Origin: Candidatus Levyibacteriota bacterium
GTDB taxonomy: Bacteria > Patescibacteriota > Microgenomatia > Levybacterales > UBA12049
Direction of reading: 5' to 3'
Assembly (NCBI GenBank): GCA_016182425.1
Contig: JACPGP010000016.1
Span: forward strand, 9,353 to 73,352
DNA: 64,000 nucleotides
The stretch's first letter is position 1, and every line of letters begins with the position of its first letter. Below are positions 13,927 to 60,462 of this stretch, piece after piece. The position numbers and the translations under genes were made by a program. The notes beneath the pieces were generated by a model that saw only the letters and a program-made list of their open reading frames with translations, did not search any database and was not told the origin of the DNA.

Positions 13927-13999
13927 TTGGTCTAGTGCGCAGCTTTGGAAAAGCTGTATATCCGCAAGGATATCGGGAGTTCGAATCTCCCCCTCTCCG
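13912..13999 (+). tRNA. tRNA-Ser (anticodon GGA)
   Basis: Acceptor is GGAGAGG/CCTCTCC, the anticodon arm CAGCT-TTGGAAA-AGCTG and the T-arm GGGAG-TTCGAAT-CTCCC. The first 15 nt overlap the NUDIX 3' end. Confidence 0.85.
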
Positions 14000-14076
14000 C
14001 AGCGTAAGAAATTTTTTAAAATTTCAACAAATCTAATAAATGGGTGTTCCGATGGAAGGTTTGGTAAAATAATTCT

Positions 14077-17136: not shown

Positions 17137-17149
17137 CAATAGTTAATAA

Positions 17150-20100
17150 TTACGCTGCTTTCTTCAATTGTTCTAACTGCTCGTTAAGCATCATATAAAT
17201 AAATGCGGCGATAAGCATAGGAATCAACGATCTACTCATCGCCAATCCAAGGTGGTACCATTCAGCGCCCAATCGTTTCTTTAACTTTTCGTATTGGTGT
17301 TCATTCACAATTCCTGCCGCGTGCACTTCATGCAGAAATGCCTGTATATCCAGCTCGTCCCAGGCCATTTGCCCTCTTCCAAAGGCAACCTGGGCGTATG
17401 AAGCATCTCCAGAAACAAAACCATGAAACTTTCCTATGCCAAGCGGTAGTCTTCCCACCCAATCTTTTTTGTAAAACTTCGCCACGCCTTCTGCTAGATA
17501 CCGCATTGCTTCGCTAGCCACATCTTTGTCGTGTCCGGAGAGTGTGCTATGCATCTCCTTCATTGCCTTAACAATATCGCCCTGGCTTTTATACTCGGTT
17601 AAATTTTGAATAAACTTACCATACAGCCCGGCAGTGGCAACAACAGGCCCAATATCCGCATCCCAACGTCTCTTTATGGTATCGCCGGTAATAGCAGCAT
17701 AATCAAATGCCTCGTGCGGCATATCATCTGTGCCAAAGATAAAGGGTACTTTCCACCCTTTATGCTCAAGGTTATGCATTAACTTATCCATATGTTTTTC
17801 CTTAAACTCACCACGAATATGTTCTGCTAGTGCCTTAACTCGTTCCTCTTGTTCTTGTTGATGGCGATATTCTTCTGTGCCAACAGCTGCGGTCTTTAAT
17901 AAAGCAAAATCTTGGTTTTCAAGTCCTGTGGGAAAATGCAAATTCTCAATTTGCTCTGGAGGCTTTGGTTGTGGTCTGTCTTTTTCCTTTACTTCTCCCC
18001 GCGCAAGACGTTCGTTAAATTCGCGCAGACGTTCGTTAAAATTACGAAGTTCATCACTATCTAGATATTTTTTGTATGCATCAATGCGTCTTCGCAACAA
18101 GCGTTCCTGCACCAGAGCCAAGGCAGCTAAATCATGTTGTAATTCTTTACTTGTAATAATAATTTGTCCGGGAGAATCAGCTTCTTCTTTAATTTGATCT
18201 TTATAATGTTTTCTAAGCACGCCTTGGCGTAAACTGATAAGGTTGTTAAAAAATTTAAGCGGCGTTGTTTTTTCGGCTACTCCAATGGCACTACGAATAA
18301 CTTGTTCAGCTTGTTGCGCCTTGTTCTTATCATCACCAACTAATTCTCCTCTTTTTGCTTCAATCAAAAGCCCAACACCTATCAAAGGATTATTCTCATC
18401 ATATTGCAATAATCGGGCAGTGGCGCTGGCCAGGGTAACCTTATCACCTTTCCATCGCCAACCGGTCTGGGTAAAGATTGAGCCAATATGAAACGGGTTT
18501 TTCATCTGACCAAGCACATCATCTCCCCTATCGTTTACCAAAATATCAAGAATTTCCGATGAAGACATGGCCTTAAACCGTTTTAGCTCCTCTGTCGACC
18601 AAGGACCCCTGTTTCCCTCCAATTTATATCCAAGTATGGCATTTTGCCGTCCTCCCACGTCAAAACGCACTATCTGCTCGAAAAAGGCGATATTTTTTAC
18701 CAAGCCGTTGGCCCACCAGCTGTTTAAGGGGACATTTTTGGTGATGCCGTGCATGGCGGCAATTTCAAAAAACCGCGCCGTGACAATACCCATGCCCCGG
18801 GCAAGCGATATGGCCCGCTTTATCTCCCACTCATCCATGTCTTTTGGCAACACCCCCATGGCTTTTGCCTTTGTGGCCATATCCAACACCAGTTGCTCAA
18901 CCTCACCATATGTCCCATCCGGATTATTAACCATTGCTCTGGCCGGAAGATAACCGCCGTTTTTTGCCACCACCTCCAGCATGGCCTGCTCGTAAAGGCG
19001 CAGCATTGACGCAGTACCCCTTTTGCTAAACGCAATGTGGGCTTCCTCTCCGGCAAAGCGGCTGGCTGCTTTAATAATATCCTCTGCGCCAAAATTCCTG
19101 TTGACATAGTAGGTGATGGTATGAAGGTATTCTCTAAGCGTTTGCTCCCTATTTAACATTCTTTCTATCCGCCGCACCTTTTCCTGCTGATCTGGAGTTA
19201 ATAAATTACCTGACGGCAAAATCTTGTTTTCCGCCGCACGTGCCAACACATTATGGAAATCTCTAATCTCCATATCTCCTCCCGGGCCAATGGCTTCCCG
19301 CCATTCGTGGTCCGAATCCACATCTGCATATTTGAAAAGCCTGCTAAATTCTTTCTCCACTTCTTGCCATTTTCTCCATCCTTCAGTCCCCTCTGCTGCA
19401 TCGGGATCCGCGGCTAAAACGTTATCTATAAGCTGTTTTTGCTGATCTCTTCCCATGCGAATTTCACCGTACAGACCGGGGTGGAGAATTGATGAATCCG
19501 TATCCATCTGCGAACGAAGGGCTTCTTTTAACCATTGTGCTTTTGACAAGAGTTTCTGGGCTTGAGCTGCCTGTTCGTCTGCACCGCCCGCAATGCGAGA
19601 CAATTCATCAATGTACTCATTTAGACGACTACTATTTACCTCTGTCTCTGTTCTTAGATCTGTGTTTGGACTGGTTAATTCTCTGCTTAGCCGGTCTGCA
19701 ATATCACGGACTCCTCCTGTATATGTATTTTGCTCAAGATCAAAATCAGCAAGCGTTTGAGACTTAAAGTATGTCAGCTCCTGCGGCAGCTCATTTCTGC
19801 CCATTCTTTGATCTGCTTCTCTTCTCCTTCTATCACCCCCTTCTCTTCTTTCCTGCTCTGCTTGCCGCGCCGTTTCTTCTTCTCTTATCTGTCTTCTTAC
19901 CACTACCAACCGCTCGGTTACTCTTTCCAAAAGCTGTTCTTGCTGGGCTTGATCAACACCGGTCAGAGAACTTACGCTTCTTCGAAGCTCCTCTAAAATT
20001 TGTAATTGTTCTTGGAAATTGCCATCCGGAATATCCTCCAGCAATCTATTCGCAGTTCGCTCTTGCAGCCGCAGTTGAAAATCGGTAATACCTGTCTCTG

Positions 20101-20758
20101 GTATCCTTGGTGCTTCTCCACTCATGGGGAAAATGCCGTGTTCAATCATCATCTGCTGGGTTCTTCTCTCGTCAAGGGATAAGGTTTTCCCTTTATTTAC
20201 CTCTTCCCAAGCCTTTCTGAGCGGATCGTTTTCTTGTGATATACCCCCGAGAAGTTTTATGTAGAAACGAAGTGCCTCGTCGCCTATTTTTTCGTACAAC
20301 TCATCAACCAAAAAATATTCATACTCTCGTACTAAATCCCTTAGTCCCTTATCAGCTCCTTCTCTATGAAGCTCGTAGCCAAGAACAAACATCTCTTCTG
20401 CCGCTTTTTTAAGCTCGCCTTCATTCCAACTCTCAATTGGTTTCTCTTTTGCTTTCTTTTGAAAGGCCTCTATTTTTGCTCTTTGCTGACTGTTTGCTTC
20501 CTCTAAAATCTCTTTCTGCTGCAATCTGCTACCGATAAATTCTTTCCTCTGTTTTTTGGCGGCTGCTTCTTTCTTACTTCGTTCTTCTTGTTTTTCTTCT
20601 TCTGTTTGTGGCTTTCCGCCTTTTTTACCTGCGGCAGGTATTTGATGTGATTTGAGTATTTCTGGACTTGCTACTGTACCATCTGGCATAAAAATACCTC
20701 CATCTCCATGGTACGCGGTTCGTGGTTGTATTGTCAATCGAACTTCCTGCTCTTTCAT
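17150..20758 (-). CDS. Very large (1202 aa) Glu/Arg/Gln-rich coiled-coil protein with a single C-terminal TM helix; function unknown
   Basis: The ORF is uninterrupted and has no N-terminal signal. The C-terminus reads LGLAMSRSLIPMLIAAFIYMML. It is GC-richer than its surroundings (58% in the line at 18961). Confidence 0.7.
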   Translation of the reverse strand: MKEQEVRLTIQPRTAYHGDGGIFMPDGTVASPEILKSHQIPAAGKKGGKPQTEEEKQEERSKKEAAAKKQRKEFIGSRLQQKEILEEANSQQRAKIEAFQKKAKEKPIESWNEGELKKAAEEMFVLGYELHREGADKGLRDLVREYEYFLVDELYEKIGDEALRFYIKLLGGISQENDPLRKAWEEVNKGKTLSLDERRTQQMMIEHGIFPMSGEAPRIPETGITDFQLRLQERTANRLLEDIPDGNFQEQLQILEELRRSVSSLTGVDQAQQEQLLERVTERLVVVRRQIREEETARQAEQERREGGDRRRREADQRMGRNELPQELTYFKSQTLADFDLEQNTYTGGVRDIADRLSRELTSPNTDLRTETEVNSSRLNEYIDELSRIAGGADEQAAQAQKLLSKAQWLKEALRSQMDTDSSILHPGLYGEIRMGRDQQKQLIDNVLAADPDAAEGTEGWRKWQEVEKEFSRLFKYADVDSDHEWREAIGPGGDMEIRDFHNVLARAAENKILPSGNLLTPDQQEKVRRIERMLNREQTLREYLHTITYYVNRNFGAEDIIKAASRFAGEEAHIAFSKRGTASMLRLYEQAMLEVVAKNGGYLPARAMVNNPDGTYGEVEQLVLDMATKAKAMGVLPKDMDEWEIKRAISLARGMGIVTARFFEIAAMHGITKNVPLNSWWANGLVKNIAFFEQIVRFDVGGRQNAILGYKLEGNRGPWSTEELKRFKAMSSSEILDILVNDRGDDVLGQMKNPFHIGSIFTQTGWRWKGDKVTLASATARLLQYDENNPLIGVGLLIEAKRGELVGDDKNKAQQAEQVIRSAIGVAEKTTPLKFFNNLISLRQGVLRKHYKDQIKEEADSPGQIIITSKELQHDLAALALVQERLLRRRIDAYKKYLDSDELRNFNERLREFNERLARGEVKEKDRPQPKPPEQIENLHFPTGLENQDFALLKTAAVGTEEYRHQQEQEERVKALAEHIRGEFKEKHMDKLMHNLEHKGWKVPFIFGTDDMPHEAFDYAAITGDTIKRRWDADIGPVVATAGLYGKFIQNLTEYKSQGDIVKAMKEMHSTLSGHDKDVASEAMRYLAEGVAKFYKKDWVGRLPLGIGKFHGFVSGDASYAQVAFGRGQMAWDELDIQAFLHEVHAAGIVNEHQYEKLKKRLGAEWYHLGLAMSRSLIPMLIAAFIYMMLNEQLEQLKKAA

Positions 20759-20800
20759 ATGTACAGCAGTTTAGGGCAAATGGTATTGGACTACTTGATA

Positions 20801-20829
20801 TTTACATTACAAACACCTTACAGTATGAT
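20801..20829 (+). promoter_or_regulatory. Promoter overlapped by 11-bp-phased TTACA(A/G) repeats
   Basis: TTTACA (20801-20806), a 17-nt spacer, TATGAT (20824-20829), then 9 nt to ATG 20839. TTACAA, TTACAG and TTACAA start at 20807, 20818 and 20829. Confidence 0.45.
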
Positions 20830-20838
20830 TACAAAGCT

Positions 20839-22023
20839 ATGGAGCGATTCGAAGCATCTTTTCCCGCAGGCTACAGAAAAGATGACATTGCCAAAATTTG
20901 TGGCTTTGTTTTACAGGGCAAATTCTGTCAACTTGTTTGTCCTCCAGGAGGCGGCAAGGCAACGCTTTTGAAATTACTTGCTAATAACCAAAATGTCAGA
21001 AATTACCATTTGGGAAAGCAGGCAGAAACGACATATTTTTTATACCTAAATCTTCTTGAACTCTCTGATTTTACCGAAAGCAGTATCTATAAATTTCTTC
21101 TCTTATCTTTAAGTCGGATGCAGGGAAAAACACTTGATGCTACCTCATTACCATCAGATCCAGTTATACTGTTACAATTACTTAAAGACAGCATTGACGC
21201 AATTACCAATCAGGAAAAAAGGACCCCTGTGTTACTTCTTGACCATTTTGATGAATATCAAAACCATCTCTCCCGTTCTTTTTTCCAGATGCTGCGGAGT
21301 CTTAAAAGCTTAGCAAAGTATCGTTTTTCCGTTGTCTTTGCCACCCGTCGAGACTTAAAAGACTTAGTTGACCCAGAAATATTGAAAGAATTTTATGATT
21401 TTTTTGTCGATAACACTGTGTACATGAAACTATCCGATCCTGTAGCATCTTCTTTTATGTTCGAGAAAATTGAAAAAATTACCGAAAAAAAGTTAAGGCA
21501 AAAAGAAAAAGATGATCTTCTTACGTTAACAGGAGGACATGCAAAACTTCTTAAAGTATGTACAGAAACTGTTTTGCAAGAACAGACAAAAATAACTCTC
21601 GAAGATCTTCTTAAAAAACCGCTTGTCCGTGCAGCATTATTTGAGCTTTGGTACTTTGATAAGAAAATAATCATACCTCTGTTTAGCGCATTTGTTAAAC
21701 AGCTATCAGCAACGGCAAAAGAAGAACATCTTTCTTTCAATGAACAAACAAAAGAAATTATGAAAGGCACAACAGCAATATCGGATCTTTTTTCTCCACA
21801 AGAGTTCCGATTGCTCAAGTTCTTACTCGAAAATAAAGATCGAATTATCGAACGAGAAGAAATTATTGCAACTGTCTGGAGAGATGCAAAAACAACTGCA
21901 GGAGTTACCGAACAAGCCCTAGATCAGCTTATTTTCCGCCTTCGCCACAAAATCGAAGATTATCCAAATAATCCTGGACATCTGCAAACAATAAAGGGCC
22001 GAGGGTTTCGTTTTACCACTTGA
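20839..22023 (+). CDS. P-loop NTPase fused to a C-terminal OmpR/PhoB-type winged-helix DNA-binding domain
   Basis: Walker A is CPPGGGKAT and Walker B-like is VLLLDHFDE. The C-terminus (EREEIIATVWRD...LDQLIFRLRHKIE...IKGRGFRF) is the trans_reg_C pattern. The start is at MERFEAS, because 20722 would overlap the divergent gene. Confidence 0.75.
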   Translation: MERFEASFPAGYRKDDIAKICGFVLQGKFCQLVCPPGGGKATLLKLLANNQNVRNYHLGKQAETTYFLYLNLLELSDFTESSIYKFLLLSLSRMQGKTLDATSLPSDPVILLQLLKDSIDAITNQEKRTPVLLLDHFDEYQNHLSRSFFQMLRSLKSLAKYRFSVVFATRRDLKDLVDPEILKEFYDFFVDNTVYMKLSDPVASSFMFEKIEKITEKKLRQKEKDDLLTLTGGHAKLLKVCTETVLQEQTKITLEDLLKKPLVRAALFELWYFDKKIIIPLFSAFVKQLSATAKEEHLSFNEQTKEIMKGTTAISDLFSPQEFRLLKFLLENKDRIIEREEIIATVWRDAKTTAGVTEQALDQLIFRLRHKIEDYPNNPGHLQTIKGRGFRFTT

Positions 22024-49812: not shown

Positions 49813-50883
49813 TTAGGAAACAAGCTTCGTGGCCCCAATAATTGGGCTGTTTGGAATCTCCACAAACGTAACTGTATACTCTGGCACAAGTTTTTTCACA
49901 GTTTCCTCAACAATTTGTTTGTAGGAAAGACCTTTCCAAAAAAGACTTCCTTCCATAACAAACGTAATGTCAGTTTGTTTGAATCTAGTAATACCTGCTA
50001 TTTGGCAAGCGATCAGCTGGGCAGATTGCCTAATGGTATTTTGGGCAAGTTTTGAAACTGCAGGTTTGCCGGTTAACATAACTATATCAAGTTCTTTTGT
50101 TTCAGAAAGAGGAGGAAACGATACTTTCTGTTTCTCTATCATGTGATTGAAGTGTTTGTAAAGATATGCTCCTGATGTTTCCTTTTCAAATAGAGACGAT
50201 CCTGGTCTGACTGAGGCTTTGTCTATAAGTTTTCCCTCTTCAGTTTGGGGGAATTTATTAAAATTTCCTGCTTCCAGATTGATGATGTGATTTTCTGTGG
50301 TAAAAAAAGAAAAATTAACGCCTGTTCCCACAATCCCACCGGCCAATTCTCGCCAGGGGTATTTTATGAGCCCTGAAAGCAGTAGGCAAACAGCATCGTT
50401 TGCCAAAGAGACGGTAATGCGTCTTCCTTTCTTGGCAAAATAAGCCTCAATTGTTTGCCCAACCGCTTTACCAATAAGCCCCTTAAAGGCGCTTTCTTTT
50501 GTTCCATTAAGCAGAATCCCATCTAGTCTGTTATGCTTAAAAACTGGAGTAATGGCCTGGGCAAAGTTAAGAGCAAGAGTTGTTACGGAAGGAGCCAGGT
50601 GCGTTTCTACACAGCTAAGGAAATCCTGCAAAGTTTTGAAGGGAGGCTGTTGAAATGTAAGCTGCTTGAGAAGACAGTGTGTGCCCTTTTGTTTTTTTAT
50701 AAGCGCAACTTTTGTTACACCTCCGCCAATACTTAACACTTGAAAGAGTTGTCCATCTTTAACAAGCGCAGTTGTGGGAAGTTGATTGACAATAAAAGAC
50801 AAACTTGATTTTTTCCCACTCTTCGCAGTCTCTAATTCTTTGACAAAATTTCTCTGTATTACCTTAAGCACAGGAAGATCCAT
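49813..50883 (-). CDS. Hexokinase-family sugar kinase
   Basis: LSIGGGVTKVAL, SLANDAVCLL, GGIVGTGVNFSF and VMEGSLF parallel the hexokinase phosphate-1, connect, phosphate-2 and adenosine motifs. Confidence 0.6.
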   Translation of the reverse strand: MDLPVLKVIQRNFVKELETAKSGKKSSLSFIVNQLPTTALVKDGQLFQVLSIGGGVTKVALIKKQKGTHCLLKQLTFQQPPFKTLQDFLSCVETHLAPSVTTLALNFAQAITPVFKHNRLDGILLNGTKESAFKGLIGKAVGQTIEAYFAKKGRRITVSLANDAVCLLLSGLIKYPWRELAGGIVGTGVNFSFFTTENHIINLEAGNFNKFPQTEEGKLIDKASVRPGSSLFEKETSGAYLYKHFNHMIEKQKVSFPPLSETKELDIVMLTGKPAVSKLAQNTIRQSAQLIACQIAGITRFKQTDITFVMEGSLFWKGLSYKQIVEETVKKLVPEYTVTFVEIPNSPIIGATKLVS

Positions 50884-50943: not shown

Positions 50944-51822
50944 ATGTCAAGAGAGTTTTTCAATTCTAAAACACATGCATTTTTGCGAGAGGAAAGTTTA
51001 AGAAGCGAGTATTCTTATGAGGCACGGCAAGCCCTTGAGGGTTTTTATAACAGTCTTTTTAGAGAAGCACCGCCTCTTCTTCGAGAATGGCACTCACAAC
51101 ATCATGGTATTGTTATGCCTTTTGGTTCTGTTTTGTTTGGAACAGCAATAAAGGGCATTTCAGATATAGATGAGTTTGGTATTTATGATGGGGAATTATC
51201 AATAGGTGAAAGAAATGCTGTTGGAAACGCTCTCTTGGGTAATGTTTTGTTAGGAGAAGAAACGATAAATCAGTCAAAAAAGCTAGATGAAGTCCTTTTG
51301 GCAATTCGCAGTGTGTATGATAGTCCTCCTATTACCGTAGGCCTGCTCTCGCAAGAACAGATTATAGCTGCGATAAGAGACCCTCTTTACGCAGATCCTT
51401 ATTTTAATTCTTTACCAAGCGATGAAGATAAACTGCAGACAATAGCCATCGTTACACTTTTTGTTATTCCAGATCATCTAGTATTGCCTAACAATGTAGA
51501 TCTTGCGCCAGTAACGCTACAAAATCTACGGCATCATAGACTACAGGTTGCTCGAGCGTTAATACGCGCAACTGAGAATAATCCACGATACTATGATATG
51601 CAGACAGCTCTTAACAAGGCGTACCTAAATTCTTTTAATCGATCTTTAAGAAAACATCCAGAGGAGTGGAGACAGCTTGCGCAGCAAATATTTGCTTTTA
51701 GAAATAAACAGAGAGCAAGCAAAAATCCAAAACGAGCTGCTGATTTATTAGTTAGATTGAGAAGAGAGCCAAAAAATTTTCCTTCGCCAGCGCAAATAAT
51801 TGGATGGCTAAGTGAAATATAA
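50944..51822 (+). CDS. Stand-alone Pol-beta-superfamily nucleotidyltransferase with a long helical C-terminal region
   Basis: PFGSVLFGTAIKGISDIDEFGIY is the G[GS]x9-13DxD NTase signature. Confidence 0.5.
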   Translation: MSREFFNSKTHAFLREESLRSEYSYEARQALEGFYNSLFREAPPLLREWHSQHHGIVMPFGSVLFGTAIKGISDIDEFGIYDGELSIGERNAVGNALLGNVLLGEETINQSKKLDEVLLAIRSVYDSPPITVGLLSQEQIIAAIRDPLYADPYFNSLPSDEDKLQTIAIVTLFVIPDHLVLPNNVDLAPVTLQNLRHHRLQVARALIRATENNPRYYDMQTALNKAYLNSFNRSLRKHPEEWRQLAQQIFAFRNKQRASKNPKRAADLLVRLRREPKNFPSPAQIIGWLSEI

Positions 51823-51838: not shown

Positions 51839-53227
51839 CTAAAGAAGCATTTTTCTTTCGATAATATCTTTGTACCAATAATAGCTTTTTTTAGGAGTTC
51901 GTTTTAAGGTTTCTCGGTCAATGTGAATAAGGCCAAAATTTGATCCGGGCTTATGTCCTAGATCCCATTCATAATTATCCATTAATGTCCATAAAAAATA
52001 CGCTTTTACAGGTATGCCAGCCAAAATTGCTTTTTGCACTTGGCGTAAATGTTTGTGAACATAGTAAATTCTAAATTCATCGTCTACTTTTCCTTTTTTA
52101 TCAACCTTATCATCCCAACATGTGCCATTTTCTGTTATGTAGATTTGCTTCATGCCAAAGTTTTCATACTTGTGATAGAGTTCGCAAAGAAGGTCATAGA
52201 AGGCTTCAGGATAGGTAGGAGGAATGCTTACAGGCCAACCGAGACCATTCGTTACACCTTGAGGATATCGTACCTCAGAAAATTTAATGTCCTTTTCTCC
52301 ATCATAACGAACAATTCTGCCTCGGTAAAAATTAATCCCAAAGGCATGAAGGTTTGAACCAACCTTAATTATTTCCATATCGTTTTTTTCTATTTTTGGC
52401 ATTTTATTTCCAAAGAGTTCTGCCATGTACTCTGGATATCTCCCAAGATATAAAGGGTCAGTAAACATACCTGTTTGATAGCCAAATTGGTATTGAGCAG
52501 CTTTTATATCTTCTGGAGAGCTACTTGCAGCATAGCTTATGGTGGTATTAAATGCTGTACTTAACTTTATATTTTTATCTTCATTTTTTAGAGCTCGAAA
52601 AACCATCCCCTGCGCTAAAAGGATATGATGTACTGCGGCTAGCGCTCCTTTTAAATCTTTTTCACCCGGCGCATGAACGCCCAGGTGATAACTTTCAAAA
52701 GTTGCTTGATACGGTTCGTTAAGAATAAAGTATTCATCAATAAATTCACCTAAGTATTTATGAACAATTTTTGCATGCTCAACAAGATACAATGTTGTTT
52801 CTCTATTTTTCCAACCTCCTTTTTTTGAAAGATATTGGGGCAACTCCCAGTGATAGAGCGTTGCGTATATTTTTATCCCGTTTTTTTGTAATTCCGCGAA
52901 GTATTTTTTGTACCATTCAAGCGCTTTTTTATTAGGCGTTTTATCTTGCGTCATGATTCTTGCCATAGAAATAGAAGTTCTATAGTCTTTTATTCCAAGC
53001 TCTTTCATTAAGATTATGTCTTCTTTCCATCTATGGTACCGATCAATGCCTTCAAGTGGGGTTTGATTTTGATAAACTCTAGGAGATGATTTTGCAAAAT
53101 GCGTCCACATGGTTGGTTCTGAATTTTCATTCTTCAATGTATATTGTTCTCCGATGACCTGCAGGTCTGCATCGGCAACGCCAAATTTGAAATTAGAAGG
53201 AAAATTAAAGTATTGAAGTTGATACAT
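51839..53227 (-). CDS. GH1 beta-glucosidase
   Basis: FKFGVADADLQVIGE...ILNEP...YITENG: both catalytic Glu contexts are present. Confidence 0.9.
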   Translation of the reverse strand: MYQLQYFNFPSNFKFGVADADLQVIGEQYTLKNENSEPTMWTHFAKSSPRVYQNQTPLEGIDRYHRWKEDIILMKELGIKDYRTSISMARIMTQDKTPNKKALEWYKKYFAELQKNGIKIYATLYHWELPQYLSKKGGWKNRETTLYLVEHAKIVHKYLGEFIDEYFILNEPYQATFESYHLGVHAPGEKDLKGALAAVHHILLAQGMVFRALKNEDKNIKLSTAFNTTISYAASSSPEDIKAAQYQFGYQTGMFTDPLYLGRYPEYMAELFGNKMPKIEKNDMEIIKVGSNLHAFGINFYRGRIVRYDGEKDIKFSEVRYPQGVTNGLGWPVSIPPTYPEAFYDLLCELYHKYENFGMKQIYITENGTCWDDKVDKKGKVDDEFRIYYVHKHLRQVQKAILAGIPVKAYFLWTLMDNYEWDLGHKPGSNFGLIHIDRETLKRTPKKSYYWYKDIIERKMLL

Positions 53228-53272: not shown

Positions 53273-55075
53273 CTATCTTTGAAATACGACAACTTCTGAG
53301 CCTGGATGATTTTTTATTGACGCCTGTGCTGGAACATACTCAACGACAGGATAGTTACCTCTTTGTATGAGTTTTTGCGCCTCAATGATAACAGTAGGCA
53401 TGGCGTCTAAAACATCTGCAAAAAAGTTTAATTGTCGAGCAACCTCTCTGTTTAAATGATAATAAAATGTTTCAAAACTAGAACCACCTAATTTTCTTTT
53501 GATAGATCCTAAAACATCAAGGTATTTATCCGTTTTCTCGGCAATGTCTCTTAAGTCTTCTGGCGCGCTTGTTGCTAGTTTTCGTGATGATAAATCTTTT
53601 AATTTCCTTGTACATATTTCAGCTAAGCCATCCATTAAGCTATAAACTTGCTCAGCATGATCTCTGGGGGCAACATAGTCTGGATCAACTCGAGTCATGC
53701 GTATTCTTACAGCAGAAGGATCAAAATGAAGACGTCTTGAAGCTTCTAATGCGGCAATATTGCCAACTAAAGAGGCAGTTGCTTGTTCGTGAAGGTCAGG
53801 TCTGTATCCTGTTCGAGCGCGATTATGATATACCTGTGTATCTATGCCAGAAAGATAGGCATACTGTTGACCTATCCGTTCATATACTACCTGTAGCCAA
53901 ACAGGAAGTAATTCGTTGTCAGCTCGGTAATGTCCTGTGACTGTCTGAAGAGGGTTCTCTCGAGATATTCTATCATTTGAAACAAACCACCATGGCCAAA
54001 AAGCAGTATTTTCATCGATTTGTCTTGCAATACACGCAGAATCGACATTTGTATCAGCTTTTCTATAAACGAAGAGCTCACTTGGGCCTGAAGGATAAGA
54101 ACTTATCGGGATTTCTTCTTCTGGAAATTCAGCTTCTAAATGTGCTTGCGCTATTTTTACAGTCCGATAATCAGGAACACCATGTTTTGTGGCGGTAGTT
54201 GCTACAATTAGTGAATTATCTGCATCTGGAAGATCATCTTCTTCTATGTCTGCATGAGTTACCACAAACTGGGCAGATTCACCTTTTATTGCTTTTTCTA
54301 ATTCTCCGTGCATAGTATCTTTAAACTTATGCGTTGCTCTCATTCCTGGATGTTTTTGTCTAACTTCACCGACAGTTTTTCCAAGTTCAGTAAAGAATGG
54401 ACTTATTGTATTTGTTATAACATCAAACATTTTTTCTGAAAGAGCTTCTCTGTCATCAAGGAGTACTTGACTATTTGGTTTTCGAGTAAGACCGTGAGGC
54501 AAAACGTCTTCTTTTAATACTCCATAGTGTTCTGGAATTATTGTGTCGTCATCAAGCTCTAATGTCTTTAATGGTCGATTTGCAACGAGGGCAAGTCCGC
54601 CCGCAACTACATCAAGTTTGGCCCGTTGGCTTGCATAACCAGTCATAGTTAAAACAGCGTCAACAATCTCTCGGGGAATTTTTGCCTTTCCCGCTATAAT
54701 ATCCGCAGTTTTTCTTTGAGTTTCAGGTGTGAGAAGAAATAATCGTGAAGGATGTGGAATTTCATGAAGACGTTGTAGGGTAGAAAGGCGGGCAACATCT
54801 GTTCCAGGTTGATTAGAGGCATCACCAAGAATTACCCATGTATCTTTAATTAATCCTTCTCGACTTAAAGCACCTTGGACAGAATAAAGCATGTTGGGAA
54901 GATGTGCGGGTTGACCATTTATTCCCCAGCGATTCATCGTAGGACTTAAAACAATGTTATCTGGAGCATCAGGAGGTAAAGTGGTGGTAATAAGTTCGCC
55001 AGCAGCATTAGGGCTATGTCCATGTATAGGAAGATGGCCATTAGGCGCAATAATTCCCTTATATGCCTCTTTCAT
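53273..55075 (-). CDS. Large (600 aa) uncharacterised soluble protein with a DxD-like motif
   Basis: The ORF is uninterrupted and GC-richer than its surroundings (52% in the line at 53761). It contains LELDDDTIIP. No family recognised. Confidence 0.6.
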   Translation of the reverse strand: MKEAYKGIIAPNGHLPIHGHSPNAAGELITTTLPPDAPDNIVLSPTMNRWGINGQPAHLPNMLYSVQGALSREGLIKDTWVILGDASNQPGTDVARLSTLQRLHEIPHPSRLFLLTPETQRKTADIIAGKAKIPREIVDAVLTMTGYASQRAKLDVVAGGLALVANRPLKTLELDDDTIIPEHYGVLKEDVLPHGLTRKPNSQVLLDDREALSEKMFDVITNTISPFFTELGKTVGEVRQKHPGMRATHKFKDTMHGELEKAIKGESAQFVVTHADIEEDDLPDADNSLIVATTATKHGVPDYRTVKIAQAHLEAEFPEEEIPISSYPSGPSELFVYRKADTNVDSACIARQIDENTAFWPWWFVSNDRISRENPLQTVTGHYRADNELLPVWLQVVYERIGQQYAYLSGIDTQVYHNRARTGYRPDLHEQATASLVGNIAALEASRRLHFDPSAVRIRMTRVDPDYVAPRDHAEQVYSLMDGLAEICTRKLKDLSSRKLATSAPEDLRDIAEKTDKYLDVLGSIKRKLGGSSFETFYYHLNREVARQLNFFADVLDAMPTVIIEAQKLIQRGNYPVVEYVPAQASIKNHPGSEVVVFQR

Positions 55076-55230
55076 AAATCCACAAGATTACTTTGTTAGA
55101 GGATACTTTTCGTATTGTATCTTATGTCATTAGTCCACCTGCTTGACTATTGGGGAATTTTTTACAGACAGCAACCTGACAAATAGTCCTTGCTAAAAGG
55201 GTAAAAACGCATTACAATACATTGGTCTAT

Positions 55231-56538
55231 ATGGAAAATTTGGTTGTCGAGGCAACCTATCCGATTACCTTTCGCCAAGATGATGCGCAAACGCTTGGAA
55301 AATACCTCCAAGGCCATCACTCGGTAGTTCTTATTGGCATGAAGCGGGTAGGAATCAGCAATTTTTTGAGATTTTTCCTTAATCACAAGGACATTATTCC
55401 AACCTACATTAGTAGAACCGATAAACACCTTTTTATTCCCGTTGACTTAAGCGATCTGGTGGAGCGGGAAATTTTTCCATTCTGGATATTAACCCTAAAG
55501 CGAATCTCCGATACTGTAGCGCAATCTTCTCTTGTTGACAGGAAAGTAAAAAAAGAAATTGAAGGGCTTTTTCTCAGCAGCATTCAGTCGAAAGATCTTT
55601 TTTTGGTTATTGATAATGTCAGAAGAAGCTTGCGTGTTATTATTCAGAGCGGTGTCTACCCAACGCTTTTTTTTCTGCGGTTTGATAGGATAAAAGAAGT
55701 AGTAACTGCTGAATTTTTCGATAATCTGCAGGGGTTAAAAGACGCCACGCATCAGAAGATGTCGTATGTGTTCACAAGCTACAGAGGGCTTGATAAACTC
55801 GCTCCATCAGTTTTTACCAAATCGTCTCTTTCCATGTTTTCGCACGATATGTACATAAAACCCGTAAGACAAGAGGATGTGCGGGTTGTTTGCAAGTCGT
55901 ATCAAAAAATGTATCGGCAACATCTCCCGTTAGATGTGCGCAGTTGGTTACACGAAATTGTCGATGGATACATTCAGTATTTGCAGCTGGGGCTTATTTT
56001 GTTGCGCACAAAGCACATTGCAATAAAAAGCAAGGAAGATCTTTTTAGTTTTGTTATGAATGATGAGCAAATCAATCTGCAGTCAGAGGAGTTATGGGAG
56101 AGTTTTGATCCGGCAGAACAGGGACTTCTTATAAAAGTTGTCCAAGGTGCAAGAATAAGCAGTGAAGACAAAACAGCGGCTAAATACCTTTGGGATACTG
56201 GTGTCTTGACGGAAAAAGCAGAGAAGCAGATATTCTTTAGCCCCCTATTTTTGTATTATGTAAAGCAAAAAATAGATAAGAAGGTGGATCAAAACGGCAT
56301 TGAGTTCACAAAAAAAGAACACCTCCTTTTTCAGGTGCTCAAAGAGCAGCAAAACCAGGTGTGCGAGCGGGAGATTATTATTGAACGTGTTTGGAAAGAA
56401 GCAGAAAGCTTTGGTGTTTCTGATTGGGCAATAGATCGTTTGGTAGCTAGAGTTAGAGGAAAATTAAAAAGACAGGGAAGTGAGTACGAAATTCAAACAA
56501 TTAAAACCAGAGGATATAAACTCGTAAGTAGTAAGTAG
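55231..56538 (+). CDS. Paralogue of 20839..22023: degenerate NTPase domain + OmpR/PhoB-type wHTH
   Basis: The C-terminus reads EREIIIERVWKE...IDRLVARVRGKLKR...IKTRGYKL. The Walker A position reads GMKRVGIS, so the conserved Lys is absent. The promoter is TTGCTA-17-TACAAT (55190-55218). Confidence 0.7.
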   Translation: MENLVVEATYPITFRQDDAQTLGKYLQGHHSVVLIGMKRVGISNFLRFFLNHKDIIPTYISRTDKHLFIPVDLSDLVEREIFPFWILTLKRISDTVAQSSLVDRKVKKEIEGLFLSSIQSKDLFLVIDNVRRSLRVIIQSGVYPTLFFLRFDRIKEVVTAEFFDNLQGLKDATHQKMSYVFTSYRGLDKLAPSVFTKSSLSMFSHDMYIKPVRQEDVRVVCKSYQKMYRQHLPLDVRSWLHEIVDGYIQYLQLGLILLRTKHIAIKSKEDLFSFVMNDEQINLQSEELWESFDPAEQGLLIKVVQGARISSEDKTAAKYLWDTGVLTEKAEKQIFFSPLFLYYVKQKIDKKVDQNGIEFTKKEHLLFQVLKEQQNQVCEREIIIERVWKEAESFGVSDWAIDRLVARVRGKLKRQGSEYEIQTIKTRGYKLVSSK

Positions 56539-56547: not shown

Positions 56548-57036
56548 TTATTCATTGAAATCAATTTCTTCAATTTTCCCGTCTTTTATTACTAATAATA
56601 CTCCTGTTTTTGGGTAATCATATAATTGAAATAAGGTAAATTTGTTTCTTAAAACCAGGTTTTTTATTGCAGCAATAACAGCGCCGTGGGTGCAGATAAG
56701 AACACTTTGGTAATTTGATTTCTCAATATATTGCAGAAAATCTTTTACCCGATCACGTAAATCATTAAATGATTCTTCGTTGTATTCATTCAGCCGTTTG
56801 TCAAAAGTAAATTTCTTTCCGGTTTTTTTGGTTACAATGGCTGCAGTTTGGCGGCATCTAACAAACTCTGAACATACATTGAATTGGGATGGTATCTTTT
56901 TTAGATAATTTGCCATTTTTTCTATTGGCGGTTTGCCTTCAGCAAGAAGCTCTGCGGTGACAATTTTGTCTCCGTACCCAAACAAGCTTTTTGTTGCCAG
57001 GCCGTGGCGGAATATATAAAAAGTTTTGTTGCTCAT
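56548..57036 (-). CDS. Histidine phosphatase (phosphoglycerate mutase-like) family protein
   Basis: FYIFRHGLAT carries the RHG motif and ...LICTHGAVI the second His. Confidence 0.85.
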   Translation of the reverse strand: MSNKTFYIFRHGLATKSLFGYGDKIVTAELLAEGKPPIEKMANYLKKIPSQFNVCSEFVRCRQTAAIVTKKTGKKFTFDKRLNEYNEESFNDLRDRVKDFLQYIEKSNYQSVLICTHGAVIAAIKNLVLRNKFTLFQLYDYPKTGVLLVIKDGKIEEIDFNE

Positions 57037-58368: not shown

Positions 58369-60462
58369 ATGGATAAAGTGTACAACCATAAAGAAATTGA
58401 GGAGAAAATTTATAAAGAGTGGGAAGAGAAGAGATATTTTAAACCAGAAATAAATCCAAACGGAAAACCCTACACAATTATTTTGCCCCCCCCAAACGCC
58501 AACGGCGCATTGCATTTTGGCCATGCCATGTTTACGGTTGAGGATATTTTAATTCGCTACCACCGAATGAAGGGTGATGCTGCGTTGTGGCTTCCGGGAA
58601 CAGATCATGCGGGAATTGAAACACAGTTTGTCTTTGAGAGAAAATTAAAGCTCGAGGGGAAATCTAGATTAGACTATGACCAAGAAACATTTTATAAAAT
58701 GATTTGGGGATATGTCGAAGAGCACAGGGGAGGAATACAAAATCAACTTCGAAAACTTGGGTTTTCTTTAGACTGGAGCCGGGAAAAATATACCCTTGAT
58801 CCGGCAGTTATTAAATTAGTTTACAAAACATTTAAAAGAATGTTTGATGAAGGAATTGCTTATCGAGACTACAGACTTGTAAATTACTGCACAAGAGATG
58901 GTACCAGCTTTTCGGATTTAGAAGTTAAGCAAGTTGAACAAAAAGACCCGCTTTATTACCTGAAATACGGTCCGTTTGTCTTGGCAACTGTCCGTCCTGA
59001 AACAAAATTTGGCGACACAGCAGTGGCTGTTAATCCAAATGACAAAAGATATCAAAAATGGATTGGAAGGGAAATAGAAGTAGAAGGACTACTTGGAAAG
59101 TTTAAGCTAAAAGTAATTGCCGATGATGTGATAGATCCAAATTTTGGAACAGGTGTTGCTAAAGTAACTCCATCTATTGACATGAAAGATTTTGAAATAG
59201 GGAAGCGGCATAATTTGCCACTTAAACTTATTGTTGGTTTTGATGGAAAACTAACAGATATCGCAGGGCCGTATGCTGGTTTGTATGTTAAAGAAGCTAG
59301 GAAAAAAGTTGTCCAAGATTTGCAAAAGAAAGGTCTTATTGAAAAAATTGATGACAATTATATACATACTATTGCTACTTGCTACAAATGCGGTATGACA
59401 CTTGAGCCATTACCCAAAGAGCAATGGTTTGTGAAGGTAAAGCCACTTGCGCAGCGGGCAATAGAGGTGGTTAAAAAAGGAGAAATTAAAATTACGCCAA
59501 GAAATTTTGAAAACACATATTTTCAATGGCTTGAAAATCTGCGCGACTGGAATATTTCTCGTCAGATTGTTTGGGGGATTCGTATTCCTGCATGGAGAAA
59601 CAAAAAAACAGGAGAGTGGGTAGTAACAGAAGGTGATATACCAAGTGGTAATGAATGGGAGCAAGATACAGATACATTTGACACCTGGTTTTCATCAGGA
59701 CAATGGCCATATATAACGCTTCTAACAACGAAACCAGGTGATTTTGAAAAGTTTTACCCAACATCGGTTATGGAAACTGGCTACGATATTCTCAAAGCAT
59801 GGGTAAGCAGAATGATGATGATGGGAATTTATGCTACCGGAAAAGTTCCATTCAGAGATATCGTATTGCATGGATTGGTGAATGATCCATATGGCAAAAA
59901 AATGAGCAAAAGCAAGGGAAATGTGGTAAATCCTCTAGAACTTGTGGAGCAGTACGGCGCAGATGCAGTGCGTTTTGCCTTAATGTATGGGAATGCCACA
60001 GGAAATGATCAGAGTTTGTCATATCCAAAACTTGACGCAGCACGCAAGTTTACTAATAAACTATGGAACATAGGTCGTTTCATTAATATGAAACGGATTT
60101 ACGATTTACGATTTACGATTTACGATTCAAGAGACGAGTTACTAAAACATGCGATACATGAGAAGGACAGAGAGATGGTTAAACGGGTAGAAAAACTTGC
60201 AAAAGAAATAACTAAAGATATTGATAATTATAACTTTAATTTCGCCGCGGAAAAGTTGTATGATTTTATCTGGCATATGTTTGCAGATAAGTATATAGAA
60301 GATGTCAAAACTCGCATTGATGAAAATTCTTGCTTAGTACTTACTACTTTATACTTAATACTGTTAAAATTACTGCATCCTTTTATGCCGTTTGTGACAG
60401 AAGAGATATATAAACGTCTTGGTGGGCAAGAATCAATTATGATATCAAAATGGCCAAAGTAA
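58369..60462 (+). CDS. valS: Valine--tRNA ligase, short form (697 aa)
   Basis: PPPNANGALHFGHAM (HIGH), KMSKSKGN (KMSKS) and ETGYDILKAWVSRM. Confidence 0.85.
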   Translation: MDKVYNHKEIEEKIYKEWEEKRYFKPEINPNGKPYTIILPPPNANGALHFGHAMFTVEDILIRYHRMKGDAALWLPGTDHAGIETQFVFERKLKLEGKSRLDYDQETFYKMIWGYVEEHRGGIQNQLRKLGFSLDWSREKYTLDPAVIKLVYKTFKRMFDEGIAYRDYRLVNYCTRDGTSFSDLEVKQVEQKDPLYYLKYGPFVLATVRPETKFGDTAVAVNPNDKRYQKWIGREIEVEGLLGKFKLKVIADDVIDPNFGTGVAKVTPSIDMKDFEIGKRHNLPLKLIVGFDGKLTDIAGPYAGLYVKEARKKVVQDLQKKGLIEKIDDNYIHTIATCYKCGMTLEPLPKEQWFVKVKPLAQRAIEVVKKGEIKITPRNFENTYFQWLENLRDWNISRQIVWGIRIPAWRNKKTGEWVVTEGDIPSGNEWEQDTDTFDTWFSSGQWPYITLLTTKPGDFEKFYPTSVMETGYDILKAWVSRMMMMGIYATGKVPFRDIVLHGLVNDPYGKKMSKSKGNVVNPLELVEQYGADAVRFALMYGNATGNDQSLSYPKLDAARKFTNKLWNIGRFINMKRIYDLRFTIYDSRDELLKHAIHEKDREMVKRVEKLAKEITKDIDNYNFNFAAEKLYDFIWHMFADKYIEDVKTRIDENSCLVLTTLYLILLKLLHPFMPFVTEEIYKRLGGQESIMISKWPK
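60097..60127 (+). repeat. Heptanucleotide array (ATTTACG)x4 + ATT inside valS
   Basis: Read directly. It encodes IYDLRFTIYDS. Confidence 0.9.

Follow-up and report, generated by a model that had tools for sequence, protein, structure and literature searches.

An uncharacterised GT-A-fold enzyme family and a conserved regulator with a degenerate AAA+ module, side by side in a Levybacteria genome

The gene for a 600-aa protein (X600) lies back to back with that for a putative regulator (REG438) in a Levybacteria (CPR) genome. A second regulator gene of the analysed 64,000-nt stretch (the window), that of REG433, is likewise divergent from a large reading frame. The initial annotation read this recurrence as a dedicated regulator-cargo relationship. 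Does each regulator belong with the large protein that it faces, or do unrelated genes merely share a boundary? The 600-aa minus-strand ORF and its divergence from the regulator gene are real. The outcome is a new GT-A family (X600) and a conserved uncharacterised regulator (REG438), two separate things that happen to be neighbours. Table 1 lists the features.

Table 1. Position and nature of the features discussed (window coordinates)
Feature	Position	Strand	Description
1202-aa unknown ORF	17150..20758	(-)	divergent from REG433; positionally conserved, hypervariable, unrelated to X600
REG433, paralogous regulator	20839..22023	(+)	AAA_22/AAA + Trans_reg_C; keeps Walker A Lys (GGGKAT) and DHFDE
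Hexokinase-like sugar kinase	49813..50883	(-)	Pfam Hexokinase_2 1.2e-16; outer boundary of variable sugar slot
U292, unknown 292-aa ORF	50944..51822	(+)	opposite strand, between GH1 and hexokinase
GH1 beta-glucosidase	51839..53227	(-)	45 bp downstream of X600, same strand; Pfam Glyco_hydro_1 4.6e-111
X600	53273..55075	(-)	soluble, 600 aa; founds an uncharacterised family of glycosyltransferase-like proteins with the GT-A fold
LELDDDTIIP, X600 residues 172-181	54533..54562	(-)	candidate DxD metal/NDP-sugar site, end of fourth beta strand
Divergent intergenic region	55076..55230	(.)	155 bp; REG438 promoter, candidate operator half-sites, possible X600 promoter
REG438 regulator	55231..56538	(+)	degenerate AAA+ (Orc/Cdc6/archaeal-ATPase-like) module + C-terminal PhoB/OmpR-type wHTH
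Degenerate Walker A GMKRVGIS, REG438 residues 36-43	55336..55359	(+)	Ile replaces catalytic Lys; from alignment and clade comparison
Degenerate Walker B FFLRFDR, REG438 residues 147-153	55669..55689	(+)	paralogue clade: LLLDHFDE
OmpR/PhoB wHTH output domain, REG438 residues 356-431	56296..56523	(+)	Pfam PF00486
His_Phos_1 phosphatase	56548-57036	(-)	Pfam; overlaps GT4, pair inserted between REG438 and valS
GT4 MshA-like glycosyltransferase	57033-58271	(-)	Pfam; NCBIfam MshA 311 bits, below cut-off
valS (valine-tRNA ligase)	58369..60462	(+)	NCBIfam 834 bits vs cut-off 704; conserved downstream neighbour of REG438

X600 had been described as a soluble protein of unknown family encoded by a GC-richer gene. 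The first two descriptions hold: it has no sequence match in Pfam, NCBIfam or the PDB, and no membrane span is suggested (no hydrophobic segment; Kyte-Doolittle maximum 1.02 over 19 aa). The third fails, as the GC content of the gene (0.400) hardly differs from the window mean (0.398), and the quoted 52% is that of one 60-nt line alone; its GC3 (0.225) is the lowest of the area. The family is tiny, with 57 homologues in a database search and 69 representatives among 1.84 billion in an exhaustive search, mostly from CPR and DPANN MAGs.

The AF2 model of X600 (pLDDT 91.4, pTM 0.92) was compared by Foldseek with the PDB, where the leading matches are all GT-A transferases: MpgS (2wvm/2wvk; E 6e-4, probability 0.99-1.0), ppGalNAc-T2, ColGalT1 and GtrB. 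The best matches in BFVD are named "Glyco_tranf_GTA_type" and "Glycosyltransferase". These matches are weak, the probabilities being 0.9-1.0 but the E values 6e-4 to 1e-2 and the TM-scores 0.26-0.38, and the stretch alignable to known GT-A proteins covers only ~140-180 N-terminal residues. The C-terminal 400 residues, which include a modelled three-helix bundle (residues 471-571), are without a known counterpart; among them K297, D302, D345, R384, H417 and R425 are invariant. By both Foldseek and hhalign, the N-terminal part has the alpha/beta/alpha nucleotide-binding core of the GT-A superfamily. The acidic DxD motif that follows the fourth strand in this superfamily is also found: in the model, strand-helix repeats run up to strand 169-174, after which comes the DDD motif.

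The motif LELDDDTIIP is present as annotated, and its D175-D176-D177 are invariant in 50 family sequences. A profile bridge connects it to proteins annotated as GT-A. The X600 family aligns in hhalign with P0221 and P0224 (probability 95% and 92%), pairing PTMNRW with PTFNRP, GDASN with SSASN and LDDDTIIPEHY with IDDDHVLPEHY, so that LELDDDTIIP falls on ITIDDDHVLP of the bridge family. P0221, a remote member of the X600 family, has sub-threshold Pfam matches to Glycos_transf_2 (E 5e-4) and Osmo_MPGsynth (E 0.0076), and its sole homologue carries the NCBI name "glycosyltransferase family A protein". The earlier suggestion of a GT-A/DxD enzyme is thus upheld at the level of the fold, by the Foldseek matches in PDB and BFVD and by the PTxNR, D-A-S and DDD correspondences in hhalign. 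The RGP-like (GT75) option is not: there is no Pfam match at E <= 0.01, and neither a reversibly glycosylated polypeptide nor a UDP-arabinopyranose mutase is among the Foldseek matches. Judged from the confident AF2 model, the fold searches and the profile bridge, the N-terminal half of X600 is a predicted GT-A fold, and X600 is the first protein to be described from a small family of soluble enzymes with this modelled fold. It is most likely a divalent-metal-dependent, nucleotide-sugar-using glycosyltransferase in which the invariant DDD would serve as the DxD site.

The sugar genes reported around X600 (GH1, GT4, hexokinase-like) are confirmed by Pfam. The GH1 protein has its best NCBIfam match in BGL TIGR03356 (401 bits, under the equivalog cut-off of 478.5). 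Directly downstream of X600 there is a GH1 gene in 11 of 15 loci, a gene for an uncharacterised ~390-aa protein in three and hexokinase in one. A hexokinase-like gene is near X600 in 8/15 loci, seven by tblastn and one (L038) by Pfam only. In the window the hexokinase is not co-transcribed with X600-GH1 because the opposite-strand ORF U292 intervenes. U292 has no match in Pfam, NCBIfam, PADLOC or PHROGs; inspected by eye only, it contains a G-S-x11-D-I-D motif resembling that of Pol-beta nucleotidyltransferases. In L038 the operon order is X600-GH1-NTP_transferase-hexokinase, where the NTP_transferase (1.6e-29) is a sugar-1-phosphate nucleotidylyltransferase. What X600 keeps as its partner is GH1, usually with hexokinase near, and not the regulator.

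GH1 and hexokinase are catabolic partners, which leaves room for a different use of the GT-A scaffold. X600 might, for example, be a glycoside phosphorylase, a transglycosylase, a nucleotidyltransferase or a hydrolase of NDP-sugars that works with GH1 and hexokinase in breaking down scavenged beta-glucosides. The confinement of the GT-A resemblance to the N-terminal ~180 residues, the large, conserved and unique C-terminal part and the replacement of GH1 by the ~390-aa protein in three loci would fit such a role. The motifs of X600, on the other hand, are those of GT-A transferases proper, with PTxNR after strand 1, an Asp after strand 2 and DDD after strand 4; the G-x-G-x-R signature of sugar-1-P nucleotidylyltransferases is absent, and we know of no GT-A-fold phosphorylase. 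Furthermore, the separate NTP_transferase gene in the L038 operon implies a consumer of NDP-sugar. We therefore hold chemistry other than acceptor glycosyl transfer to be unlikely, if still worth keeping in mind, and retain the glycosyltransferase assignment.

REG438 is 435 aa long from its ATG; the longest ORF begins at a TTG at position 55222. Its C-terminal domain belongs to the OmpR/PhoB-type winged helices (Trans_reg_C, 51.3 bits against a cut-off of 26.2, E 1.3e-13), and the best NCBIfam matches are partial ones to PhoB, over the C-terminal ~100 residues only and far under the cut-offs. No Response_reg (REC) match is found in Pfam, and REG438 is thus not a two-component response regulator. 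The AF2 model (pLDDT 88) instead has an AAA+ base with a helical lid. Its Foldseek matches are headed by the archaeal AAA+ protein PABY2304 (2qen, E 7.7e-8), with 1w5t, 2fna and 1fnn also found, and include SSO1545, Orc1/Cdc6, CED-4 and Apaf-1. There are 122 PDB matches at E <= 1e-3, and the best 50 of the 122 consist almost wholly of AAA+ proteins and related STAND NTPases (Orc/Cdc6, archaeal ATPases, RuvB, TnsC, MuB, RFC, CED-4/Apaf-1).

The dead Walker A of REG438 is real, lies on an AAA+ fold and is conserved through the clade. The Lys-Ser/Thr pair was said to be lost at GMKRVGIS; the Lys has indeed given way to Ile, while the following Ser is kept. Since the Ile is nearly invariant among the orthologues, the change is fixed in the family and no sign of decay. 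The acidic residues of Walker B are lost as well (LRFDR against DHFDE in the paralogue), a change that had escaped notice. REG438 has neither a canonical Walker A (GxxxxGK[ST]) nor a canonical Walker B (hhhhD[DE]), and both degenerate forms are conserved across its clade, whereas the REG433 clade keeps GxGKAT and LLDHFDE. The proposal of a non-hydrolysing sensor is plausible on these residues. The two regulators are true, distant paralogues: BLASTP aligns their wHTH domains at 35% identity (E 1e-11) and 190 aa of their N-terminal domains at 25% (E 4e-10).

That paralogy underlies the proposal that REG438/X600 and REG433/1202-aa ORF are two dedicated modules, each paralogue having co-evolved with, and controlling, one large protein. 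The X600 pair has a 155-bp shared control region and is kept in a second locus, L037 (70% identity in X600, 72% in the regulator), and the REG433 clade is divergent from an ORF of 1059-1357 aa in 7/7 loci. But 13 of the 15 X600 loci, including that of another Levybacteria genome (L006), have no regulator homologue within fetched flanks of up to 10 kb. An adjoining regulator occurs at two, the window and L037, with an X600 identity of 70% or more, and an adjoining X600 at 2/8 regulator loci; co-occurrence beyond close relatives is not seen. REG438 orthologues at 57-69% identity face other genes: hexokinase directly, FBA-FBPase-PGK, HAD-PRK, GH63 with an uncharacterised protein, GATase...PfkB, or IMPase with an uncharacterised 1078-aa protein, none of the uncharacterised ones being similar to X600. 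Searched for in one and the same database, the regulator family yields at least 1641 members and the X600 family 57. The two large proteins of the window are unrelated (best BLASTP E 4.5), the large ORFs opposite the REG433 clade have no detectable homology among themselves or likeness to X600, and a comparison of the two intergenic regions gave no shared motif beyond chance. Beyond close relatives, in short, the divergent neighbours differ between genomes, an outcome that the initial annotation had itself named as refuting. The synteny data largely refute the regulator-cargo model, which we regard as very improbable.

What surrounds REG438 is a conserved backbone with a variable slot. In 6/6 orthologue loci the order is hexokinase ... 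variable genes <-> regulator -> (HisPhos-GT4) -> aaRS-TPR-L25-RuvC, with RuvA/RuvB also in most of them. The hexokinase orthologues that bound the slot are 48-53% identical. The gene after the REG438 orthologue is a class-I aaRS with the Pfam domains of valS in L014-L016 and L034-L036, and the His_Phos_1/GT4 pair occurs in L034, L036 and L037 but not in L014-L016 or L035. Seven different sets fill this variable sugar slot, bounded by hexokinase, across the six orthologue loci and the window; X600-GH1 is thus one choice among at least seven. The REG438 contexts number only eight, all from related Microgenomates, and REG438 could adjoin valS and hexokinase through backbone synteny and nothing else.

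If so, REG438 might be a global or chromosome-associated DNA-binding factor, Orc/Cdc6-like or of nucleoid type, whose neighbours merely reflect the valS-L25-ruvCAB backbone. Its Orc/Cdc6-like fold, the housekeeping genes downstream and a very high conservation (the top 120 matches are 56-72% identical over the full length) would agree with this. A PhoB/OmpR-type wHTH, however, is typical of promoter-specific regulators, and the divergent side, though its gene identities vary, always carries carbohydrate or central-carbon genes ending in hexokinase. Phased direct repeats also adjoin the -35 box of the REG438 promoter. A scan placed this promoter at TTGCTA (-35, 55190-55195) and TACAAT (-10, 55213-55218). 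The candidate half-sites are TGACT (55144-55148), AGACAG (55166-55171) and TGACAA (55177-55182), spaced by 22 and 11 bp; a possible minus-strand -10 box for X600, TACAAT at 55119-55114, can be read from the sequence. L034, L036 and L037 keep promoter and repeats at matching offsets. Measured from the -35 box, the repeat positions are -45, -23 and -12 in the window and in L036 and -45, -22 and -11 in L037; L034 has those at -23 and -12. Phased pairs number 14 against 0.09 in shuffles; four of the repeat-bearing promoters are alignable with one another and hence not independent. L015 has four sites in exact 11-bp phasing and by itself, with five GAC sites taken into account, gives a P of about 2e-4; the L016 promoter is without the repeats. 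Taken together, we consider a global factor distinctly unlikely, and the phased xGACA repeats upstream of the promoter a candidate operator.

The account that we think probable is therefore that of an X600 enzyme in a GH1 cassette and, separately, a conserved degenerate-AAA+ regulator that happens to adjoin it. X600 and GH1 form a conserved two-gene cassette, usually beside hexokinase. Hexokinase and a nucleotidylyltransferase may supply NDP-hexose to X600, which would form a glucoside that GH1 hydrolyses or recycles. This logic of a beta-glucoside made and then recycled is not backed by MpgS, because the product of that enzyme would be no GH1 substrate. REG438 would be this genome's orthologue of a transcription factor highly conserved in Microgenomates, one in which an Orc/Cdc6-like AAA+ module replaces the receiver domain of PhoB/OmpR. 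Since the Walker A Lys and the acidic residues of Walker B are lost as fixed traits, this module probably works by ligand binding or oligomerisation, with no ATP hydrolysis. Placed upstream of valS and divergent from the hexokinase-bounded slot, of which X600-GH1 is the occupant in this lineage, REG438 probably binds the phased xGACA direct repeats and so may control its own promoter and the divergent operon.

Among characterised enzymes, the closest relative of X600 by Foldseek is the GT55 enzyme MpgS (PF09488, Osmo_MPGsynth), which is also the best PDB sequence match of P0221 (E 0.13). Both are soluble GT-A proteins with an acidic DxD-type site and N-terminal motifs like "VVPT.N...ASNSS". 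X600 differs in being ~200 residues longer, with its own conserved C-terminal half, and the TM-scores stay low, at 0.26 and 0.38. The partners differ too: MpgS, a retaining alpha-mannosyltransferase, goes with a phosphatase and X600 with a beta-glucosidase. Membership of GT55/PF09488 was rejected: X600 has no match and P0221 reaches 15.6 bits against a cut-off of 27. GT2/GT27 enzymes (GtrB, ppGalNAc-T2, DPM synthase; PF00535) have the same core at the level of the fold, and their PTxNR, D-x-S and DxD motifs align with X600 through P0221 and P0224. Sequence identity to them is ~10%, and X600 lacks both a membrane anchor and a lectin domain. As members of GT2/PF00535, too, the proteins fall short, X600 having no match and P0221 and P0224 scoring 20.5 and 15.7 bits against a cut-off of 23.3.

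REG438 shares with the OmpR/PhoB response regulators a Trans_reg_C wHTH in the same C-terminal position and, in its candidate operator, 11-bp-phased direct repeats beside a -35 box; read on the opposite strand, these repeats (TTGTCA/CTGTCT) resemble a pho box. Unlike those regulators it has no receiver domain, phospho-acceptor Asp or adjacent cognate histidine kinase, and its N-terminal 350 residues form an AAA+ base, lid and winged-helix module where OmpR/PhoB have REC. The order of base, lid and winged helix is that of Orc1/Cdc6 and PABY2304/SSO1545 (Foldseek E 8e-8 to 1e-5), and an N-terminal NTPase followed by a C-terminal DNA-binding domain is also the layout of the STAND-type regulator MalT. 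REG438 differs from all of these in the change of Walker A Lys to Ile and of Walker B DxxDE to LRFDR, in its extra OmpR-type wHTH and in its small size (435 aa), with no repeat sensor domain.

The divergent pair consists of X600, a 600-aa protein, and the regulator REG438, both found where the initial annotation had placed them, on either side of a shared 155-bp intergenic region. The motifs quoted for them are also present: LELDDDTIIP corresponds to X600 residues 172-181, GMKRVGIS to REG438 residues 36-43, and the wHTH tail is in place. GH1, hexokinase-like and GT4 genes all flank the pair, bearing out the proposed sugar-gene setting. X600 is not GC-richer as had been stated, its GC content being 0.400 against a window mean of 0.398 (GC3 0.225); the quoted 52% is that of a single 60-nt line. 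Horizontal transfer of X600 on the grounds of GC content was ruled out by the same values. No Rfam family or tRNA was detected in the region of the pair.

Coordinates of features in the window and in database loci (L numbers) carrying homologues of X600 or of a regulator
Feature	Source	Position	Strand
tmRNA and tRNA gene region	window	8382-14000	
tmRNA gene	window	8382-8756	-
Membrane protein (564 aa)	window	15442-17136	
Three-gene block with REG433	window	15442-22023	
1202-aa ORF	window	17150-20758	-
REG433 upstream region	window	20795-20838	
REG433	window	20839-22023	+
Hexokinase-like gene	window	49813-50883	-
U292 (292 aa)	window	50944-51822	+
GH1	window	51839-53227	-
X600	window	53273-55075	-
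Intergenic region of the pair	window	55076-55230	
TACAAT, X600 side	window	55119-55114	-
Candidate half-site TGACT	window	55144-55148	
Candidate half-site AGACAG	window	55166-55171	
Candidate half-site TGACAA	window	55177-55182	
REG438 promoter, TTGCTA	window	55190-55195	
REG438 promoter, TACAAT	window	55213-55218	
REG438, TTG of longest ORF	window	55222	
REG438	window	55231-56538	+
GT4 and His_Phos_1 genes	window	56548-58271	-
~390-aa protein in GH1 position	L001	9834-11015	
~390-aa protein in GH1 position	L005	3414-4583	
~390-aa protein in GH1 position	L009	1765-2904	
Alanine-racemase-like gene	L003	6784-8001	
Alanine-racemase-like gene	L011	5018-6259	
Alanine-racemase-like gene	L013	6100-7842	
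GH63/MGH1-like gene	L034	3229-4395	
GH63/MGH1-like gene	L011	11839-12963	
GH63/MGH1-like gene	L003	13804-14964	
1264-1276-aa protein	L013	849-4643	
1264-1276-aa protein	L003	1-3814	

X600 is 100% identical to a hypothetical protein (P0001) of a Candidatus Levybacteria MAG, which places the window in a CPR/Microgenomates genome. Searches with the single sequence and with a 50-sequence profile gave no match in Pfam, NCBIfam, PADLOC, PHROGs or PDB sequences. A word-indexed search returned 57 homologues (30-73% identity), all unnamed and none with a precomputed Pfam domain. An exhaustive HMM search recovered only 69 family proteins among 1.84 billion cluster representatives, hence the family is small and isolated; this search gave no link to an annotated family except through the weak bridge members P0221 and P0222. 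The genome records carrying X600 are labelled Levybacteria, Gottesmanbacteria, Peribacteria and Woesearchaeota; the two further carriers are short contigs that had been binned as Delta- and Gammaproteobacteria. Nineteen residues are invariant in the 50-member alignment, among them R49, D85, R151, D175-D176-D177, D253, K297, D302, D345, R384, H417 and R425. Two members, P0184 (964 aa) and P0195 (776 aa), have N-terminal extensions of ~390 and ~190 residues, respectively, without a Pfam match; these may be fusions that hint at function.

The AlphaFold2 model of X600, built from the 50-member alignment (pLDDT 91.4, pTM 0.92), has an N-terminal part of alternating strands and helices, in which strand 40-46 is followed by PTMNRW, strand 79-85 ends at D85, and strand 169-174 leads into the DDD motif; three long helices (residues 471-571) form the C-terminus. 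Every top-ranked Foldseek match in the PDB is a GT-A glycosyltransferase: mannosyl-3-phosphoglycerate synthase (MpgS, GT55; 2wvm/2wvk, E 6e-4 to 6e-3, probability 0.97-1.0), ppGalNAc-T2, ColGalT1 and GtrB, all of them weak matches with TM-scores of 0.26-0.38 that cover mainly the first 140-180 residues. An independent viral structure library likewise ranked 'Glyco_tranf_GTA_type' and 'Glycosyltransferase' first. A sequence bridge is provided by P0221, which has sub-threshold Pfam matches to Glycos_transf_2 (E 5e-4) and Osmo_MPGsynth (E 0.0076), and MpgS as its best PDB sequence match (E 0.13). The only relative that a homologue search gave for it carries the NCBI name 'glycosyltransferase family A protein'. 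Aligned with the X600 profile by hhalign (95% probability for P0221, 92% for the relative), the bridge proteins pair PTFNRP with PTMNRW, SSASN with GDASN, and IDDDHVLPEHY with LDDDTIIPEHY of X600. The fold matches and this bridge together persuaded us both of the GT-A fold and of the DxD reading, which the initial annotation had offered as a guess. The Pfam thresholds for GT55 and GT2 were not reached, therefore X600 is placed in no defined GT family, and ~400 of its residues, including many invariant positions, are without a known counterpart. X600 stands for a candidate new GT-A family whose genes, in CPR/DPANN genomes, are locked to those of GH1 and hexokinase.

The gene context of X600 was surveyed in 15 distinct loci. 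GH1 is the next gene downstream on the same strand in 11 of these, its products being 55-80% identical to the window GH1, which itself lies 45 bp downstream of X600. The window GH1 sequence contains the catalytic motifs NEP and ITENG as well as the DNYEW motif typical of non-phospho beta-glucosidases, and its best NCBIfam model is BGL. At three loci the GH1 position is occupied by an uncharacterized ~390-aa protein without Pfam or PDB match, which may be a non-homologous functional substitute. The hexokinase-like gene follows X600 directly in one locus and is found in the fetched flanks of eight of the 15, several of the others being contigs of only 3-6 kb. In L038, X600, GH1, a sugar-1-phosphate nucleotidylyltransferase and hexokinase form a tight same-strand operon; nothing else in the gene context hints as strongly that a nucleotide sugar is consumed by X600. 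Three loci have an alanine-racemase-like gene (Ala_racemase_N/C) immediately upstream of X600: in L003 and L011 the two genes overlap at the X600 start, and in L013 they are 158 bp apart. U292, on the opposite strand between GH1 and hexokinase and without family match, has a G-S-x11-D-I-D motif (FGSVLFGTAIKGISDIDEF) that by eye may resemble that of Pol-beta-type nucleotidyltransferases; a conventional NTP_transferase is at its position in L038. In several genomes a GH63/MGH1-like (mannosylglycerate-hydrolase-like) gene is again found close to either X600 or the regulator slot.

The longest REG438 ORF starts at a TTG; both the NCBI model and the orthologues in the database begin at the ATG. Database relatives of REG438 number at least 1641; the best 120 are full-length (~433 aa, 56-72% identity) and come from Levybacteria and other Patescibacteria. 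Pfam recognizes only the C-terminal Trans_reg_C, and the best partial NCBIfam matches are to PhoB. The AF2 model (pLDDT 88.4) matches the archaeal AAA+ ATPases PABY2304 and SSO1545, Orc1/Cdc6, ORC subunits, CED-4, Apaf-1 and RuvB with E-values of 8e-8 to 1e-5, which gives an architecture of AAA+ base, lid and winged helix followed by an OmpR/PhoB wHTH. The Walker A Lys-Ser/Thr had been reported as lost: the Lys is indeed gone, but the following Ser is retained. The P-loop reads G[MI]KRVGISNF throughout the REG438 clade, and the Lys loss is accompanied by loss of the Walker B acidic residues (FFLRFDR); the clade of the paralogue REG433 retains PGxGKAT and LLDHFDEY, being itself slightly deviant in having Ala directly after the Walker A Lys. 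From this clade-wide comparison the dead Walker A of REG438, as first annotated, is real, ancient and clade-defining.

Six REG438 orthologue loci (57-69% identity) share a backbone with the window, in which the hexokinase-like gene lies on one side and the regulator points away from it toward valS, a TPR protein gene, L25 and ruvC; most of the loci continue with ruvA and ruvB. A His_Phos-GT4 pair is inserted between regulator and valS only in the window, L034, L036 and L037, and is absent from L014-L016 and L035. In the window these two genes overlap by 4 bp, and the best NCBIfam match of the GT4 is MshA (D-inositol-3-phosphate glycosyltransferase; 311 bits, short of the cut-off). Together they resemble a unit that works in two steps, 'glycosyl-phosphate synthase plus phosphatase'. 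The slot between hexokinase and regulator holds different genes in every genome, apart from the X600-GH1 common to the window (with U292 in addition) and L037, whose X600 is 70% identical to that of the window. It is without genes in L014, and contains HAD and HAD-PRK genes with a transposase remnant in L015; FBP aldolase, FBPase, PGK and one uncharacterized gene in L016; a GH63-like hydrolase and uncharacterized 524-aa and 227-aa proteins in L034; GATase, HAD-like and PfkB genes with uncharacterized 450-aa and 187-aa proteins in L035; and IMPase-like and alpha/beta hydrolase genes with an uncharacterized 1078-aa protein in L036. The uncharacterized proteins of L034, L035 and L036 were ruled out as X600 homologues, none resembling it. 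Conversely, the flanks fetched around X600 (up to 10 kb) harbour neither a REG438 nor a REG433 homologue except in the window and L037; another Levybacteria genome, L006, has X600 without a nearby regulator. The dedicated regulator-cargo module that had been proposed is not borne out: since the slot contents vary and include proteins unlike X600, X600-GH1 is one alternative occupant rather than the dedicated cargo of REG438. The slot is variable and carbohydrate-themed, anchored by hexokinase and regulator, and REG438, located at this variable slot, is an abundant, uncharacterized AAA+-wHTH regulator in which the loss of the ATPase motifs is fixed.

The proposed module drew on the similar arrangement of REG433, which matches Pfam AAA_22, AAA and Trans_reg_C and is divergent from a 1202-aa ORF. 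REG433 orthologues at seven loci (L017, L019, L022, L024, L025, L027 and L028; 44-63% identity) are in every case divergently paired with a 1059-1357-aa ORF, and this ORF converges with the gene of a conserved multi-pass membrane protein (phmmer E 1e-37 to 1e-156 to that of the window); the three-gene block is common to the window and all seven. The large ORFs fall into at least two groups without detectable similarity (hhalign probability 0.4%) and one orphan, and their common homology was rejected for lack of profile-profile similarity between groups even though the flanking genes are conserved. Thus the REG433 pair is positionally conserved but hypervariable. The 1202-aa ORF and X600, earlier taken as one kind of cargo, have nothing in common, and homology between them was rejected. 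Two observations are added here. The 1202-aa ORF is weakly similar (pairwise BLASTP E 0.005, 21% identity over 184 aa) to a 1264-1276-aa uncharacterized protein adjoining hexokinase in X600 loci L003 and L013, which could be chance or very remote homology. The window also has a tmRNA gene and six clustered tRNA genes, four for Ser and two for Arg. The initial observation on the X600/REG438 pair was largely correct; two look-alike divergent pairs in 64 kb do not make one recurring module, a tempting over-reading that is corrected here.

The REG438 promoter (TTGCTA, 17-nt spacer, TACAAT) is conserved in orthologous loci, and upstream of it in the window are three candidate half-sites spaced 22 and 11 bp apart. 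Relative to the -35 box the sites are at -45, -23 and -12 in L036, at -45, -22 and -11 in L037, and at -23 and -12 in L034. L015, not alignable in this region, has four (-48, -37, -26 and -15); there is one site in L014 and none in L016. There are 14 phased GAC pairs where shuffles give 0.09, a pooled figure that overstates independence because four of the sequences are mutually related; L015 alone gives P ~2e-4 for phasing, conditional on its five GAC sites. Direct repeats one helical turn apart beside a -35 box are the classic OmpR/PhoB-family binding layout, and the other-strand readings TTGTCA and CTGTCT resemble a pho box. On the X600 side, a perfect minus-strand TACAAT lies 39 nt upstream of the start and has no good -35 box; judged from the sequence, an activator-dependent promoter for X600-GH1 would fit this arrangement. 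Upstream of REG433, in the window, L017, L019, L024 and L027, T[TA]ACA direct repeats with 11-bp spacing follow a conserved CTTGATATTTA; their architecture is analogous to that of the REG438 xGACA repeats, whereas the half-site is different. The two window intergenic regions, which the initial annotation proposed to compare, have no motif in common beyond chance, one 8-mer being shared where chance alone would give 0.65.

The metabolism of CPR and DPANN organisms is minimal; to our knowledge, the majority of their conserved gene families lack an assigned function and the organisms are not yet genetically manipulable. Neither the X600 nor the REG438 family turned up in the literature that was searched. 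With a confident GT-A-like fold, no sequence family, and ties to a beta-glucosidase and hexokinase across several phyla, X600 is a concrete candidate for a new glycosyltransferase family and points to unrecognized sugar handling in these symbionts. REG438 is among the best-conserved Microgenomates transcription factors, yet unstudied, and its fixed loss of ATPase motifs, variable-slot position and candidate operator offer a testable entry into gene regulation in these organisms. A far-reaching reading, which we think unlikely, would have X600 found a CAZy-level GT family, mostly of ultra-small CPR/DPANN, that with GH1, hexokinase and sometimes an NDP-sugar pyrophosphorylase forms a self-contained synthesis/recycling cycle for a glucoside (e.g., a storage compound or compatible solute), and at the same time REG438 represent a new class of one-component regulator, whose dead AAA+ P-loop with its conserved K-R pair would sense a phosphorylated sugar or nucleotide and govern a hot-swappable, hexokinase-anchored sugar island via the pho-box-like phased repeats.
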